Counted from the stretch's first letter, positions 1 through 27,809 are shown. The stretch: DNA of 31,618 bases from Rickettsiales bacterium (GCA_028289305.1 JANQQO010000101.1:1-31618), one strand, 5' to 3'. The notes: generated from the letters alone by a model not told the origin. A program made the numbers and translations.

Positions 1-291
1 GTGAAGATATATACCAGCGGTAGTGTTGCGGTGAGCCGGGACATCACCAAACCAGTAGCTGGCACGGTGGATATCTATGTCGATTCAGTGTTGCAAACAA
101 GCGGCGTGAGCGTGGATACCACCACCGGCATGGTCAGCTTCATCGCTCCGCCAGCGGATGGCAGCACTGTTACGGCTGATTTTGAATTTGATGTGCCGGT
201 ACGTTTCGACACGGACGAACTACAATTTGCCATTGATAGTTTTGATGCTGGCAGTTGGAACAACATTCCCTTGATTGAGGTGCGTGTATGA
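1..291 (+). CDS. DUF2460 / TIGR02217 GTA-like distal tail protein, C-terminal part (5' truncated by window)
   Basis: Motifs 'RDITKPVAGTV' and 'TADFEFDVPVRFDTD...IPLIEVRV' typical of the family; stop overlaps the next ATG (ATGA). Confidence 0.85.
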   Translation: MKIYTSGSVAVSRDITKPVAGTVDIYVDSVLQTSGVSVDTTTGMVSFIAPPADGSTVTADFEFDVPVRFDTDELQFAIDSFDAGSWNNIPLIEVRV

Positions 292-23197: not shown

Positions 23198-23929
23198 ATG
23201 CCTTTGCCAGAAAGGGAATATTTCGATTTGTCTGCGCTTGCAAAGCGGTGGCAAACAACCGTTCAAGATGTTCAGCATTATGCGGAAACGGGTAAATTGC
23301 GTTGTTCTGTATGGCTTGACCAAATATCAGTAGAAACAGGGGTATTTAAAAAACGGGCTAATGGCCAAAAGCTATTCGAACCACTTGAGAAGCTCTATAT
23401 TGAGGGTTTTGTAGGGATTAGACCAGAGGATTGTCGGCGTTTGTTCCGAAACGAGCGTGCTAGTACCACTGTTTTTGTCTCGCTCAAGCAGGAAAATCTC
23501 TATCTACATATCACTAGGGAAACCGAGGCCAAGATCGCTATTGAGCCAAAAGATTTAGTGGTGAGGGCTATTGATCGCGATCATTTTGAGCGTATCAATG
23601 GTCTAGGCACCGGCGTTTCATCCATTTTGGTAAATGGATTTTGTGAGAATGGGGGTGTTTTTGAGCGTTCTAAGAAATTCTCTCACAGCGCAGACTTTAC
23701 TACCGTGACTATTTCAGGAGAAATCTTTCGTTTTGGTATGATTCAAGCCAAAATTGTGAGTTTGCTTTATGGTGCTTATACGCGTGGTGATCCATGGGTG
23801 CACGGCAAAACGCTGCTTTATAATGCGGGGTCGCAAAGTGAGCGCATAAAAAGCATATTCCAGAGCAAACCTAGCTGGCGCAAGCTCATAAAATCCGATG
23901 GACGCGGTTATTACGCGCTTGATCTATAG
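23198..23929 (+). CDS. putative DNA-binding protein typical of alphaproteobacterial prophage-like elements
   Basis: N-terminal HTH-like 'YFDLSALAKRWQTTVQDV..YAETGKL'; C-terminal winged-helix-like 'FRFGMIQAKIV..L...PWVHGK.LL..AGS....IKSIF...W..LIKSDGRGYYAL'. Confidence 0.65.
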   Translation: MPLPEREYFDLSALAKRWQTTVQDVQHYAETGKLRCSVWLDQISVETGVFKKRANGQKLFEPLEKLYIEGFVGIRPEDCRRLFRNERASTTVFVSLKQENLYLHITRETEAKIAIEPKDLVVRAIDRDHFERINGLGTGVSSILVNGFCENGGVFERSKKFSHSADFTTVTISGEIFRFGMIQAKIVSLLYGAYTRGDPWVHGKTLLYNAGSQSERIKSIFQSKPSWRKLIKSDGRGYYALDL

Positions 23930-23944
23930 CGCGTGCGATGCCCG

Positions 23945-24090
23945 CAGACCACTCCACCACCACATATCCCCCACTCATCATCCAGTAAGATAGTTGACCT
24001 TATAGAAACATCCTTTTTCTCTTGGGGTGTGGGATGATGTGCATCGTCCAATAAACCGCCATCAGACCTCACGACATCCCCACCCATCAT
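23945..24090. repeat. CCCC-AC-CATCAT direct and inverted repeats
   Basis: ATCCCCCACTCATCAT (23966-23981), ATCCCCACCCATCAT (24076-24090), and related GGGGTGTGGGATGATG on the opposite strand (24024-24039); both direct copies are preceded by CAGACC. Confidence 0.7.
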
Positions 24091-24133
24091 TTGTCAGTCT
24101 TCCGTTCGAACAGTTCAAACAACGGAGGCAAAA

Positions 24134-24346
24134 ATGAACGATTCAAAACATCCAAGAATTACTCTGAAAGATATCCGGCATATATCTGTAGAAACGTTAA
24201 TCAAGCTTGATATTACCCAACTGCGAAGTCTTGAAGAAGAGGCCGATAAGGAACTCTATGCAGCAGGCACCCAATTGGAGTGGGTGCGCGGAATTATCAC
24301 AAAGAAGCTTCGCGATACGTCGATTTCCAAAAAATCCGCCTCTTGA
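24134..24346 (+). CDS. small hypothetical phage-element protein
   Basis: GGAGG RBS; 'RITLKDIR...LRSLEEEA...LEWVRG' resembles small early proteins of such elements. Confidence 0.65.
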   Translation: MNDSKHPRITLKDIRHISVETLIKLDITQLRSLEEEADKELYAAGTQLEWVRGIITKKLRDTSISKKSAS

Positions 24347-24354
24347 GGTTCATG

Positions 24355-25515
24355 ATGTCAATGGAATGGTACAGGGCGTATCACGGTATGCCACATGATC
24401 CCAAATTGCAGGTAGTAGCAAAGCGTAGCAAGCAGCCTATGGCTTTTGTGGTGGCAGTTTGGGTCTACATACTCGATGCTGCCTCACAGCATGATCCTCG
24501 CGGTATGGTCGAGATTGATCCAGAAGAGGTGGCGGTCATCCAGGACATCGATCTGGAGGTGGTGGAAACCATTCTGGATGTGCTCACATCCAAGAAGCTT
24601 ATCGACGACGAAGGCAATGTAGTGAACTGGCATAAGCGCCAGCACACCACATCCACCGAGCGCTCTAAGAAGAGCCGCGAGAAAAAGAAGCGCGATGCAG
24701 CGGCAAGCAACAGCAAACAGTGCCGTGCAACGACACACAGCGCAGAACGACGGAAAAAAGGTAAAAAACACCCAGATACAGATAAAGATACAGAAGCAGA
24801 TTTAGATACAGATCAGATTACACATACAGATTTAAAAAACAGAGCGAGAGAAGAAAAGAGGGAGTCACAGGGAGAAAAACAGCAAATCAGTGGAAAAGGT
24901 ACAGAGCAGAACAAAACACAAATTCTTCAACAAATGGCAGATATCTGGAATGAAAAGGTTCAGAGTAAGATCACACCAAGCCAAAATGTCATACTCACAC
25001 CTAAACGCAAAGAGCTGCTGGCAGCCAGATGGGTAGATGAATTTGCGGAGGATATAAGAGGTTGGCGCTATTTCTGTGAGGTTATCGGCACATCGGATTT
25101 TTGTCTCGGTAGGATTAAAGGTAAGGACTGGACGATTGACTTGACCTGGGCGATCCAGTCGCCCGATCGTGTAGCAAAAATCCTTGAAGGTGGTTTTTCC
25201 GGAGGCAAGCATCCTCCCAAGCCGCCATCATGTACTATCCCTGAATTCCAGGATGCATGGGATGAAGTCATCAAGCGGATGGTACATCACCACGGCTCCG
25301 CAGCTATCCGCAGCTGGTTTACGAGCACCGTTATCACAACCCCCATCGATACGCCGGATGGTGTGATGCTTACACTTGAATGTCCTCGTGAGTTTGTGTG
25401 TGGCTGGATTGAAGAACATTATCTCAACGATCTAAATTTCTACTGGTCTGAGCAATCGCAAATTTCTCACACAGTGGTCGGCATTCAGCTTGCAGTGCGG
25501 GGGAGTCGGACATGA
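24355..25515 (+). CDS. phage-type replication initiator with a C-terminal DnaA domain-I-like region
   Basis: N-terminal 'W.RAYHGMPHDPKL..VA', 'NWHKRQ....ERSKKSR' replisome-organiser-like; DTD repeats; C-terminal 'W..V..RM....G.AA.RSWF...LTLECPREFVCGWIEEHY'. Start 24355 (or 24352) follows GAGG. Confidence 0.75.
   Translation: MSMEWYRAYHGMPHDPKLQVVAKRSKQPMAFVVAVWVYILDAASQHDPRGMVEIDPEEVAVIQDIDLEVVETILDVLTSKKLIDDEGNVVNWHKRQHTTSTERSKKSREKKKRDAAASNSKQCRATTHSAERRKKGKKHPDTDKDTEADLDTDQITHTDLKNRAREEKRESQGEKQQISGKGTEQNKTQILQQMADIWNEKVQSKITPSQNVILTPKRKELLAARWVDEFAEDIRGWRYFCEVIGTSDFCLGRIKGKDWTIDLTWAIQSPDRVAKILEGGFSGGKHPPKPPSCTIPEFQDAWDEVIKRMVHHHGSAAIRSWFTSTVITTPIDTPDGVMLTLECPREFVCGWIEEHYLNDLNFYWSEQSQISHTVVGIQLAVRGSRT
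24774..24833 (+). repeat. AGATACAGA iteron-like repeats within the rep gene
   Basis: AGATACAGA at 24774, 24786 and 24804; ACATACAGA at 24822. Confidence 0.65.
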
Positions 25516-25916
25516 ATGATAATTTCAAAAAATGGACCGTGACTGACGTTGCTGACCGATTCGAGGAAGCAGCACTGACTCTAAAGCGTATGCCACCAGT
25601 GCGGATAAAAGGGTATTTCAGCACGTGGCCGGAGATCGTGCATACTACGATGGAAAAGCTGCAATGCGACCGGCGACCGCTGCGTATGGGGCCACCATCG
25701 CCAGATGCTATTAGTCGGATGGAAGAAACTATTCAGTGGATTTTCTGGCTCGATGGAGAGGAGGAGCGAAAGCTTATATGGCTTCGTGCGGCTCGCGTGC
25801 CCTGGAAATCGATATATTGGCGTCTTGGCTGCGGGCGTACCAAGGCATGGCAGATGTGGACATACGCGCTTCTGAAGATTGTTACTCGCCTTAATGCAAG
25901 GCAGGAAGGGCGTTAG
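25512..25916 (+). CDS. DUF6362-family protein (putative phage transcription regulator)
   Basis: 'W....VADRFEEAA.TLKRMP.VR.KGYFSTWPE', 'PPSP.AISRMEET..W', 'IWLRA....WK.I..RLG..R..AW..W..AL..I..RLN'. Confidence 0.8.
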   Translation: MNDNFKKWTVTDVADRFEEAALTLKRMPPVRIKGYFSTWPEIVHTTMEKLQCDRRPLRMGPPSPDAISRMEETIQWIFWLDGEEERKLIWLRAARVPWKSIYWRLGCGRTKAWQMWTYALLKIVTRLNARQEGR

Positions 25917-25917
25917 G

Positions 25918-26214
25918 ATGTTCGAACAAAAAAACACTAAACAGGGTGAACAAAAAACGTTATCTTCACTAATAGAGTCGCGAGAGGTGGATGCGAAACC
26001 TCTTTCAGCATACGATACGCTCGTAGAGGCGATTAGGCGTTCCCATCCGGAAAAATTATCAGAAAGAGAATCTCACACCATTGCCCGGCGTCTTATGGGG
26101 TTTTGTGAGCATGTAATGAGGGTTCATGATCGACTAGAACGGGAGAAACAGCAGAATCAACTTGATAAAGAGGGGGTTCATGGCAATGTGACAGATAAAA
26201 AGCGAGGTGAATGA
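25918..26214 (+). CDS. small helical protein coupled to the recombinase
   Basis: ATG 1 nt after the DUF6362 stop; ATGA overlap with the recombinase. Confidence 0.65.
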   Translation: MFEQKNTKQGEQKTLSSLIESREVDAKPLSAYDTLVEAIRRSHPEKLSERESHTIARRLMGFCEHVMRVHDRLEREKQQNQLDKEGVHGNVTDKKRGE

Positions 26215-27809
26215 TGTCACATGCCAGTAAAGCGGTTATACTTGTAAGGGTGTCGAGTGAGGAGCAGGAAGAGGGGCATTCGCTTGATGCTCAGAAAGCC
26301 AGGCTCATTGATTATTGTGAGCGGCGAAATCTAGAAGTCCTTAATACATATACTATTATCGAATCTTCAACGCGTGGTGATCGCAAGCAGTTCATGGCAA
26401 TGCTTGAGTTTGCCAAACAGCAGAAACAAACCATCGCCATTGTTGCGGATGCGGTAGACCGCGTGCAGCGAAGCTTTAAGGATTCAGTATACCTGGATGA
26501 TTTGATCCGCCAGGAAAAGATCGAGCTGCATTTTTATCGCGAAGGTATGATTATTAACAAAGATGCCAGTGCTTCGGACATTATGCGCTGGGATTTTTCG
26601 GTTATGGGCGCAAAGAGCTACGTATTACAGCTATCAGAGAACGTGAAGCGTAGCCTGGATTGGAAATTAAAGAAGGGAGAGTGTATCGGCAGCGCCCCAC
26701 TTGGTTACCTGAATGAAAGGGATGAGGATGGCAATAGCGCTGTGGTGGTTGACCCAGTGCGTGGGCCGCTCATTCGCCGCTTCTTTTATGAATACGCAAA
26801 AGGAACATACACACTTTCTGATATGACCAGAAAATGTAAGGAATGGGGATTGCGTAGCAAAAAGGACTGCTATGTGAGCAAAGCGGTACTACATAATCTT
26901 TCACAGAACCCGTTTTATTATGGTGAGATGTATGTCAAAGGTGACTACTACTCACACAAGTATGAGCCGTTGATCACTAAGGATGTTTTTTTAGATTGTC
27001 AGGCAGTCAGAGAAGGTTGGAACAAGAAACCATTCAGATATGGCGGAAAAGAATACTTGTTTCGTGGGTTGTTGACCTGCTCTGTAACGGGCAGAATGGT
27101 GACAGCCGACACAAAAACCAAAACCTATGCTAGCGGCAAAACTGCAGAATGGACATATCTCGGCACATGGAATCCTGATAATCCGAAGCGCAAAATGTGG
27201 ATGCGCGAGGAAAAGGTGATAGAAAAAATTGACGATATACTGAAAAATATTGGGTGTCGGAATCCAGAATTGCTCGACTTGGCTGCTGCTGCAGTGAAGG
27301 AAACAAACGAGTTCAAGCAACACTACCACGATCGTGAGGTGACGGCTCTAAAGAAAGAACATGCTGATATTCAGAAAAGACTGGATCGTATGTTAGATTT
27401 GCTGGCAGAGGGCGTTATTGATAGGGAGGATTTCAAGCATAAGAAAGACCTGATGAAAAATCGACAGCGTGAAATCCTGCAGTTGATATCGGCACATGAT
27501 GGGGCAGATGAAGCCTTTTCAAATACAATGATAAAACTGTTAAGATTTGCTTCAGCAGCCCATTATGGCTTTATGGGTTCGAACCTAGAAGAAAAACGGG
27601 AACTCTTGAATTTTGTGTTTTCGAACCTGCAATTAAAAGGGACAACTCTTTGTTATTCCTTGAATTTTCCATTTGATAGGTTTGAAAATTTGGCCGAAAC
27701 AGAAGAATGGCTGGGGCGGCAGGATTCGAACCTGCGCATGCCGATACCAAAAACCGGTGCCTTACCACTTGGCTACGCCCCAATCGTCCGAAAAGAGTGC
27801 GGAGTATAA
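26211..27809 (+). CDS. large serine recombinase (resolvase + recombinase + degenerate Zn-ribbon + coiled coil)
   Basis: Catalytic 'LVRVSSEEQ', 'DAVDRVQR', 'ENVKRSL..K...G......PLGY', 'NPFYYG', 'HEP-like YEPLIT..VF', 'LFRGLLTC'. The frame continues through the antisense of tRNA-Gln. Confidence 0.92.
   Translation: MMSHASKAVILVRVSSEEQEEGHSLDAQKARLIDYCERRNLEVLNTYTIIESSTRGDRKQFMAMLEFAKQQKQTIAIVADAVDRVQRSFKDSVYLDDLIRQEKIELHFYREGMIINKDASASDIMRWDFSVMGAKSYVLQLSENVKRSLDWKLKKGECIGSAPLGYLNERDEDGNSAVVVDPVRGPLIRRFFYEYAKGTYTLSDMTRKCKEWGLRSKKDCYVSKAVLHNLSQNPFYYGEMYVKGDYYSHKYEPLITKDVFLDCQAVREGWNKKPFRYGGKEYLFRGLLTCSVTGRMVTADTKTKTYASGKTAEWTYLGTWNPDNPKRKMWMREEKVIEKIDDILKNIGCRNPELLDLAAAAVKETNEFKQHYHDREVTALKKEHADIQKRLDRMLDLLAEGVIDREDFKHKKDLMKNRQREILQLISAHDGADEAFSNTMIKLLRFASAAHYGFMGSNLEEKRELLNFVFSNLQLKGTTLCYSLNFPFDRFENLAETEEWLGRQDSNLRMPIPKTGALPLGYAPIVRKECGV
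27708..27782 (-). tRNA. tRNA-Gln (anticodon UUG), 75 nt with encoded CCA
   Basis: Reverse complement TGGGGCGTAGCCAAGTGGTAAGGCACCGGTTTTTGGTATCGGCATGCGCAGGTTCGAATCCTGCCGCCCCAGCCA: D-arm, anticodon stem CCGGT/ATCGG with TTG, T-loop GGTTCGAATCC. Confidence 0.97.

Follow-up and report, generated by a model that had tools for sequence, protein, structure and literature searches.

The Element and Its Recombinase

The window analyzed here, a whole 31.6-kb contig from a 1.76-Mb alphaproteobacterial MAG, carries an integrative element whose genes (an HTH-like gene of 243 aa, a small ORF, a replication initiator, DUF6362, a further small ORF and a recombinase) lead up to a tRNA-Gln(UUG) gene (Table 1). 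The same gene order is found in the elements of three related genomes (G039, G019 and G023), where it is located at other tRNAs. The last gene of the row encodes a large serine recombinase (LSR), of which residues 1-500 are conserved in the family; as its ORF converges on the minus-strand tRNA-Gln gene, the last 32 residues (501-532) come from the antisense strand of the tRNA. The recombinase ORF overlaps the attachment site at its own 3′ end, running through a TGG triplet into the tRNA, and the same is seen across the family.

Table 1. Features of the element and of its attachment region in the window; distances are given relative to TGG.
Feature	Position	Strand	Basis
Integrative element body	23198..27710	+	Pfam and PHROG hits; gene order
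Tandem GTTCGAAC-A-GTTCAAAC, directly 5′ of the RBS of the first gene of the rep-to-recombinase row	24104..24120	+	Relatives L048, L049, L051
Large serine recombinase ORF, 532 aa, integrated-state reading	26211..27809	+	Pfam Resolvase and Recombinase; AF2
Inverted pair GTTCG-N40-CGAAC, 50 bp, centre 27601/27602; proposed accessory recombinase-binding site	27577..27626	.	Mirror variants; no indels
Site 1, core GTTCG, inside the GGTTCGAACC palindrome (27576-27585); codons G456-S457	27577..27581	+	88 homologues
Site 2, TTTTCGAACCT, core CGAAC at 27622-27626; codons F470-S471-N472-L473	27618..27628	+	88 homologues
GGTTTGAAAAT, T-loop-like motif in the P arm (element side)	27679..27689	+	GTT[CT] at -28
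TGG = W500 = antisense of the tRNA CCA end; probable crossover region	27708..27710	+	Invariant W500; tRNA 3′ end
tRNA-Gln(UUG) gene	27708..27782	-	ARAGORN
T-loop DNA GGATTCGAACC, outer motif of the B′ arm; CGAAC at +20..24	27722..27732	+	Family counts

Residues 8-157 of the LSR match PF00239 (E = 1.7e-16), the resolvase-type catalytic domain with its serine nucleophile, and R13, V14 and S15 are invariant among 48 LSR sequences; a match to PF07508 (Recombinase domain) is also present. The AF2 (AlphaFold) model (pLDDT 87.7) comprises a beta-rich domain (298-332), long helices (352-456) and a closing hairpin (470-484), and it predicts that a zinc-ribbon-type domain, interrupted by a coiled coil, comes after the recombinase domain. 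Foldseek comparison of this model with the SPbeta, Bxb1, PhiC31 and LI integrases gave full-length matches (E = 4e-19 to 2e-12), and by its modelled fold the protein is a full-length large serine recombinase. The four usual zinc-binding cysteines are not evident in the LSR family, in which only C263 and C290 are conserved. Pfam searches revealed no second ORF with a resolvase domain in the element, and no directionality factor was identified there. Note also that a C-rich stretch between the 243-aa gene and the rep operon (window 23960-24100) contains three CCCAC..CATCAT-like copies, one of them inverted; the G039, G019 and G023 elements have C-rich repeats of a comparable kind, at which two of these contigs stop, and the repeats in the window may be iterons of the replication initiator.

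A promoter-like site is located 5′ of tRNA-Gln on the minus strand (27831-27803), and promoter scans around 24100 and 27600 returned this tRNA promoter only. As no terminator-like hairpin was found after tRNA-Gln (27560-27707), transcription of the tRNA probably continues, in antisense orientation, into the 3′ part of the recombinase gene.

The tRNA Junction and the Attachment Site Arms

Homologues were collected in a survey of near relatives, covering 40 genomes of the same order with loci stacked on the tRNA end, and in a wider sample of 80 loci from named genomes and 53 IMG/VR contigs. The named-genome loci belong to Rickettsiales (including Tisiphia, Megaera and Rickettsia endosymbionts), Rhodospirillaceae, Micavibrio and several Bacteroidota, and the LSR family is a large one, distributed over Rickettsiales, other Alphaproteobacteria and Bacteroidota. 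In the 40 genomes, every full-length homologue or C-terminal remnant that was fetched adjoins a tRNA 3′ end in one register, and the stacked loci show no gap over the 150 nt counted from the tRNA end. In the wider sample the tRNA begins exactly at the T of TGG in approximately 53 of 68 loci, and at least 14 tRNA amino-acid identities adjoin family recombinases. The junction itself can be placed at the CCA end on the evidence of one genome that has identical recombinase ends at two targets, tRNA-Asp and tRNA-Ser, the two sequences diverging beyond TGGCGG. The crossover is bounded at or before +6 from TGG, is placed near T1/G2 by arm symmetry, and probably falls within or adjoining TGG; with a crossover at this triplet, every tRNA gene would offer identical central bases.

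On the attB side, 57 of 88 family members, each adjoining a tRNA, have CGAAC at +20, whereas a TTCGAAC-type motif with CGAAC at +25..29 is present in 12 non-redundant attP-type members lacking a tRNA (free or tandem-junction forms). In the case of the LI integrase, the motif of the zinc-ribbon domain occupies positions 16-24 of the attP half-site and lies 5 bp nearer the centre in attB (PMC3783163). The inward shift of 5 bp expected of a serine integrase is seen when the 57 tRNA-joined members are compared with the 12 tRNA-less ones, and this shift identifies the T-loop core as the probable arm motif of these enzymes. On the element side, GTT[CT] at -28, present in 18 of 56 core-clade members, mirrors the P′ CGAAC (+25..29) about TGG. 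The family enzyme appears to read the universal CCA end together with the T-loop at a fixed distance, and the arm-motif result would explain how one family uses almost any tRNA gene.

The other end of the element was sought in several ways. Neither a displaced 3′ fragment of tRNA-Gln nor a repeat of the tRNA end (attL) was found in the window or in the genome, and scanning for the attL signature, TGGCT with a T-loop-like motif beyond it at the spacing of P′, returned nothing convincing; the left end is thus unmapped, and the element may have become fixed at this locus. Three other candidates were examined and rejected. TTCGAACC at 23375 belongs to the 243-aa gene, and its spacing from a TGG does not suit an attachment arm, and GTTCGAACAGTTCAAAC at 24104 has no TGG at the right distance for a P′ arm, the homologue of the 243-aa gene being found further left in G039 too. 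In locus L048 (4494-4517), a small ORF of the G039 element has 12 nt in common with the 3′ end of the adjacent tRNA-Leu, followed by TTCGAA at the tRNA-type distance, but this match is missing from the G019 homologue.

Decayed C-terminal fragments of the recombinase adjoin many tRNA 3′ ends (G013, G017, G018, G022, G026, G033, G034 and G007; loci L031-L046) and have different upstream breakpoints, and these remnants indicate that in this order such elements have often been inserted and have then decayed. A tandem array is found on contig 1 of G034 (L040/L041, ~882-889 kb): one recombinase gene has an attP-type junction there, and a second copy of its 3′ end, on a fragment ~5 kb farther along, adjoins tRNA-Asn, which has tRNA-Asp and tRNA-Val as neighbours.

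Copies of the T-Loop Motif in the Window

The original prediction for this DNA described a tRNA T-arm sequence repeated in helical phase inside the 3′ end of the recombinase gene. TTCGAACC does occur on the + strand at 27578, 27620 and 27725, the last copy being the T-loop of tRNA-Gln, each in frame as S-N-L and with spacings of 42 and 105 bp, and the further TTCGAAC positions that had been listed (23375, 24105, 25921, 19284 and, on the minus strand, 14705) are likewise correct. The window contains 5 matches to TTCGAACC against 0.64 expected and 11 to TTCGAAC against 3.0 expected, numbers that were reached in none of 100 dinucleotide shuffles in either case. On the + strand, 5 TTCGAAC are found in the 4.5-kb element (23198-27707) compared with 1 in the other 27 kb. 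The codon-preserving shuffle suggested as a check of the prediction also revealed enrichment, the shuffled ORFs containing on average 0.14 TTCGAAC, with P(>=2 TTCGAAC) = 0.004 and P(>=2 TTCGAACC) = 0.00045.

The copies outside the recombinase gene are of different kinds. GTTCGAAC at 25920 forms the start of the next ORF (M-F-E-Q); it is kept in two relatives and absent from a third, and may be conserved at the protein level only. The tandem upstream of the rep-to-recombinase row is kept as GTTCGAAC-A-GTTCGAAC at the equal place in L048 (3059-3080), L049 and L051, and thus in four elements with four different tRNAs; it may be an operator.

Conservation of the Internal Sites at the DNA Level

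The three TTCGAACC copies are not equivalent. GTTCG is found at -131 from TGG in 52 of 88 non-redundant homologues, with GTTCT in 6 more, and CGAAC at -86 or -87 in 59 of the 88, with AGAAC in 9 more. On the basis of this family comparison, the conserved units are an inverted pair, GTTCG (site 1) and CGAAC (site 2), and not direct TTCGAACCT repeats: two copies do exist in the gene, as originally described, but the first "SNL" is particular to the window, homologues reading STI, SDI, SQM or SKT at this place. The proposed helical phasing also stands in part, the distance of 105 bp between site 2 and the T-loop being family-wide (110 bp in the attP form), whereas that of 42 bp is peculiar to the window. 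The cores of the pair lie 45 bp apart, start to start, its centre is ~106-110 bp (roughly ten helical turns) upstream of the crossover, and indels between the pair and TGG are absent across the family.

The codons that spell these motifs are conserved beyond the residues that they encode. Codon 456 (-44) is always NGT, although the residue may be S, R, G, C or N, and codon 471 (-29) is NCG in 13 of 13 members (residue S, A, T or P), to be compared with 23% G gene-wide. Among 18 non-redundant stacked members, the commonest third base at codons -44, -43, -30, -29 and -28 has a frequency of 1.00, 0.89, 0.83, 0.94 and 0.94, respectively, whereas the maximum elsewhere is usually 0.3-0.65, so that the conservation is confined to the motif codons. 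Four members spell CGAAC in another frame, shifted by one base (ATT-CGA-ACx, which gives I-R-T for F-S-N). When the last 200 nt were compared with the upstream 1200 nt, TCGAA and CGAAC were the top two of 512 pentamer pairs, with enrichments of 7.5x and 5.9x (p about 1e-22).

These patterns bear directly on the more trivial explanations, namely protein constraint, codon bias, chance or decaying integration scars. N472 and S457 are nearly invariant and F-x-N-L begins a conserved beta strand, as a protein constraint would require, yet residues 456 and 471 vary while their third bases are fixed. Codon bias and chance are at odds with the use of TCG, which makes up 15% of the Ser codons gene-wide but encodes Ser457 in 14 of 15 members, and with the synonymous shuffle (P = 0.0005-0.004). 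As to scars, a single register is kept beside at least 14 tRNA species, and the segment is well folded and conserved. Explanations of this group are largely refuted, and we regard them as highly improbable. The earlier caveat that FSNL may be constrained by the protein gives way to selection at the DNA level, protein constraint alone leaving the fixed third bases beside varying residues unaccounted for, and the suggestion that scars of repeated integrations built the tail does not fit a stretch that is conserved and confidently folded, with the crossover at the CCA end, ~86-131 bp downstream. Thus, judged by codon usage across the family, the internal motifs are under DNA-level selection. The homologues do retain TCG, AAC and the neighbouring third bases while residues vary, a point that the original prediction had proposed to check; the internal motifs do not track the T-stem of each element's own tRNA, with which they share only the universal T-loop core. 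The gene represents a clean case of dual coding, in which a DNA signal overrode synonymous drift over long evolutionary time.

A different account of the conserved stretch is that the terminal ~135 bp, reaching from site 1 as far as the crossover, constitute an exchangeable attP-side module, the motifs marking its border or having spread by recombination without being bound. Two loci agree with such an exchange, the identity between L019 (Leu) and L020 (Thr), ~72% upstream, being 95% over the interval that begins exactly at site 1 (-133) and ends at +6. However, this is the single clear case, as in other pairs identity rises only mildly, and the conservation of third bases among members that are 40-60% identical in protein would be left unexplained. 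We consider the module quite unlikely.

The two half-sites are mirror images of each other with lineage-specific variants, and they resemble the sense T-loop, (A/G)GTTCGAA(A/T). Some lineages have GTTCT/AGAAC at the internal pair and retain CGAAC in the tRNA T-loop. Other subclades place the copies differently, for instance as two direct CGAAC at -133 and -63, which indicates that no single geometry is universal. As sites 1 and 2 are reverse-complementary over 5-9 nt and the variants are changed on both sides, they could in principle pair as an RNA helix, either within the mRNA of the recombinase or within antisense transcripts that read through from the tRNA gene, and control stability or translation. 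The covariation score (0.183 vs 0.115) was reached in 0 of 500 column shuffles, and an antisense RNA is plausible with no terminator after the tRNA. However, the mirror-image covariation amounts to only 3 independent changes on the tree, too few to decide in a phylogeny-aware analysis, RNAalifold gave a consensus with 0 pairs, and single-sequence folds were no better than shuffles (z = 0.02 and -0.55). The helix would consist of only 5-7 bp closing a loop of 36-40 nt, and it would leave unexplained both the identity of the core with the att arm motif and the direct copies in other subclades; a role as RNA is therefore very unlikely in our judgment.

A Putative Accessory Recombinase-Binding Site

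The original prediction proposed that the repeats are accessory or decoy sites for the recombinase or a directionality factor. Of these, recombinase binding is the best reading, since the attachment sites of this very recombinase have the internal motif in their arms. Extra recombinase-binding sites are further suggested by the T-loop-like half-sites and their mirror variants, by the likeness of the flanks of site 2 to the P′ flanks of the same element (43 vs 34.9 identities, p = 0.012, uncorrected for relatedness), by a member that has TTTGAAC in its tRNA and P′ motif and at site 2 as well, and by the recombinase being the only gene common to all carriers, which belong to Alphaproteobacteria and Bacteroidota and extend in size from Rep elements of 4 kb to IMG/VR contigs of 30-50 kb. 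The motif also recurs as a conserved tandem 5′ of an operon whose last gene is the recombinase. Several points stand against an accessory site: the 50-bp span, the unlike inner core, the lineages with GTTCT/AGAAC and the subclades with direct copies. The span of 50 bp lies between the family spacings deduced for attB-type (~46-48 bp) and attP-type (~56-58 bp) sites, and the sequence between the internal cores is unlike the crossover core, so that the pair is not simply a second attP.

In the mechanism that we propose, the copy at 27725, as the T-loop of the host tRNA-Gln, would serve as the outer recognition motif of the chromosomal B′ half-site, at the position contacted by the zinc-ribbon domain in known serine integrases, and strand exchange would take place at or beside the CCA end (TGG, 27708). 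The copies at 27578 and 27620 would be element-borne versions of this recognition motif, written into the reading frame by constrained codon choice, and their inverted pair would bind additional recombinase subunits as an accessory site, with a role that may be likened to that of the res accessory sites for small resolvases. Such binding may tune recombination, through the architecture of the synapse or its direction, or the local concentration or expression of the enzyme. Comparison of family sequences establishes the DNA-level conservation of the cores, the fixed tRNA register, the correspondence of the core to the arm motif and the 5-bp offset between attP and attB; for the reading as a whole, with a B′ arm motif at 27725 and an accessory recombinase-binding site at the internal pair, we see about an even chance, binding and role being deduced from these patterns.

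The pair might alternatively be bound by another protein that recognizes a T-loop-like palindrome, such as a recombination directionality factor, a regulator of the element or a host factor. Site 1 is a perfect 10-bp palindrome in the window, GTTCGAAC palindromes are located 5′ of the operon, as for a small dimeric regulator, and the internal variant GTTCT/AGAAC differs from the tRNA motif. However, the recombinase is the sole gene present in all carriers, the core is the P′/B′ arm motif of the recombinase with partly matching flanks, and it is already largely seen that the sites are kept in elements with no accessory gene in common. Binding by another protein is accordingly rated as improbable, and recombinase binding is retained as the preferred reading.

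To our knowledge, known large serine recombinases need no accessory sites. Large serine integrases are prized for genome engineering because only two short sites, without accessory DNA, are believed to suffice for them. If the internal copies act in the control of recombination, this two-short-site picture would change, and a built-in means of regulating direction or activity would be indicated. A stronger version of the accessory reading, in which recombination depends on the pair as a genuine accessory recombinase-binding site or takes its direction from it, making this the first res-like multi-site locus of a large serine integrase, strikes us as rather doubtful. The internal pair could in this case sense the arm motif at 105 bp in attR, on the same helical face, or at 110 bp in attP, on the opposite face; the half helical turn between the integrated (105 bp) and free (110 bp) forms would be a purely geometric consideration.

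Comparison With Known Systems

Serine integrases act by a two-base staggered crossover at a non-palindromic central dinucleotide and use a directionality factor for excision. The phage-type integrases (Listeria A118/LI, Bxb1, PhiC31, SPbeta, TP901-1) have the same full-length fold as that predicted for the LSR, and likewise have outer arm motifs that lie 5 bp nearer the crossover in attB than in attP (PMC3783163). Differently from them, the LSR family targets the CCA end and T-loop of many tRNA genes, has its attP inside the enzyme's own gene, and carries extra arm-motif copies ~86 and 131 bp from the crossover, whereas the studied integrases use only simple 40-56-bp sites.

The layout that the internal pair most resembles is that of the res sites. 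In Tn3/gamma-delta (sites II and III) and Sin (site II), inverted or direct recombinase-binding repeats lie within ~100-130 bp of the crossover, no exchange takes place there, and in res-type loci such accessory sites are needed for synapsis or topological selectivity. The conserved arm-motif copies at -131 and -86, if bound by the recombinase, would be comparable to these; the present system differs from res in having a large serine recombinase, two different sites, and extra sites located within coding sequence.

The nearest published case found is the ssrA-specific large serine recombinase DsiB of Dehalococcoides, whose ORF invariably extends at its 3′ end over the attachment site and into the tmRNA gene, and whose islands stack in tandem (PMC3146451). 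The overlap of the recombinase ORF with the attachment site at its 3′ end is common to both systems. DsiB islands are inserted in the T-loop of the tmRNA with a direct repeat of ~20 bp, and a small recombinase, DsiA, is the partner of DsiB (PMC3146451). Unlike this arrangement, the junction in the window lies at the CCA end and not in the T-loop, and neither a repeat nor a second recombinase was found. In Myxophage Mx8 (intP/intX) and in mycobacteriophage BPs-type switches, the attachment site is located in the gene and integration changes its 3′ end. These enzymes differ from the LSR in being tyrosine integrases, and we know of no Mx8/BPs-type system with copies of a tRNA motif upstream within the gene. 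Our literature searches yielded no description of serine integrases that act at the tRNA CCA end and have internal copies of the motif; papers on tycheposons and on S. meliloti had no bearing on the subject.

Recombinase Genes Without an Adjoining tRNA

Several Bacteroidota loci (L128, L131, L139, L142, L143, L164 and L181, from Kordia, Pedobacter, Chitinophaga and Saprospiraceae, on contigs of 0.1-0.7 Mb) have a junction of the attP type, which carries GCGAAC at +24..29 and begins in imitation of a tRNA-Arg end. As no tRNA lies beside these homologues, they are not integrated via this site in those assemblies. The tRNA-less recombinase ORFs at a set of IMG/VR loci (L056, L067, L068, L072, L073, L076, L077 and L096) extend 27-42 residues past TGG. 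Their tail starts with W-x-x-L-x-D-x-L-R-T, in which R-T corresponds to CGA-AC of the P′ motif, and in proteobacterial phage-like contigs it ends with -IAA, -LAA or -LCA, like an ssrA-type degradation tag, whereas the Bacteroidota forms do not end in this way. Integration would remove the C-terminal tail of the tRNA-less form.
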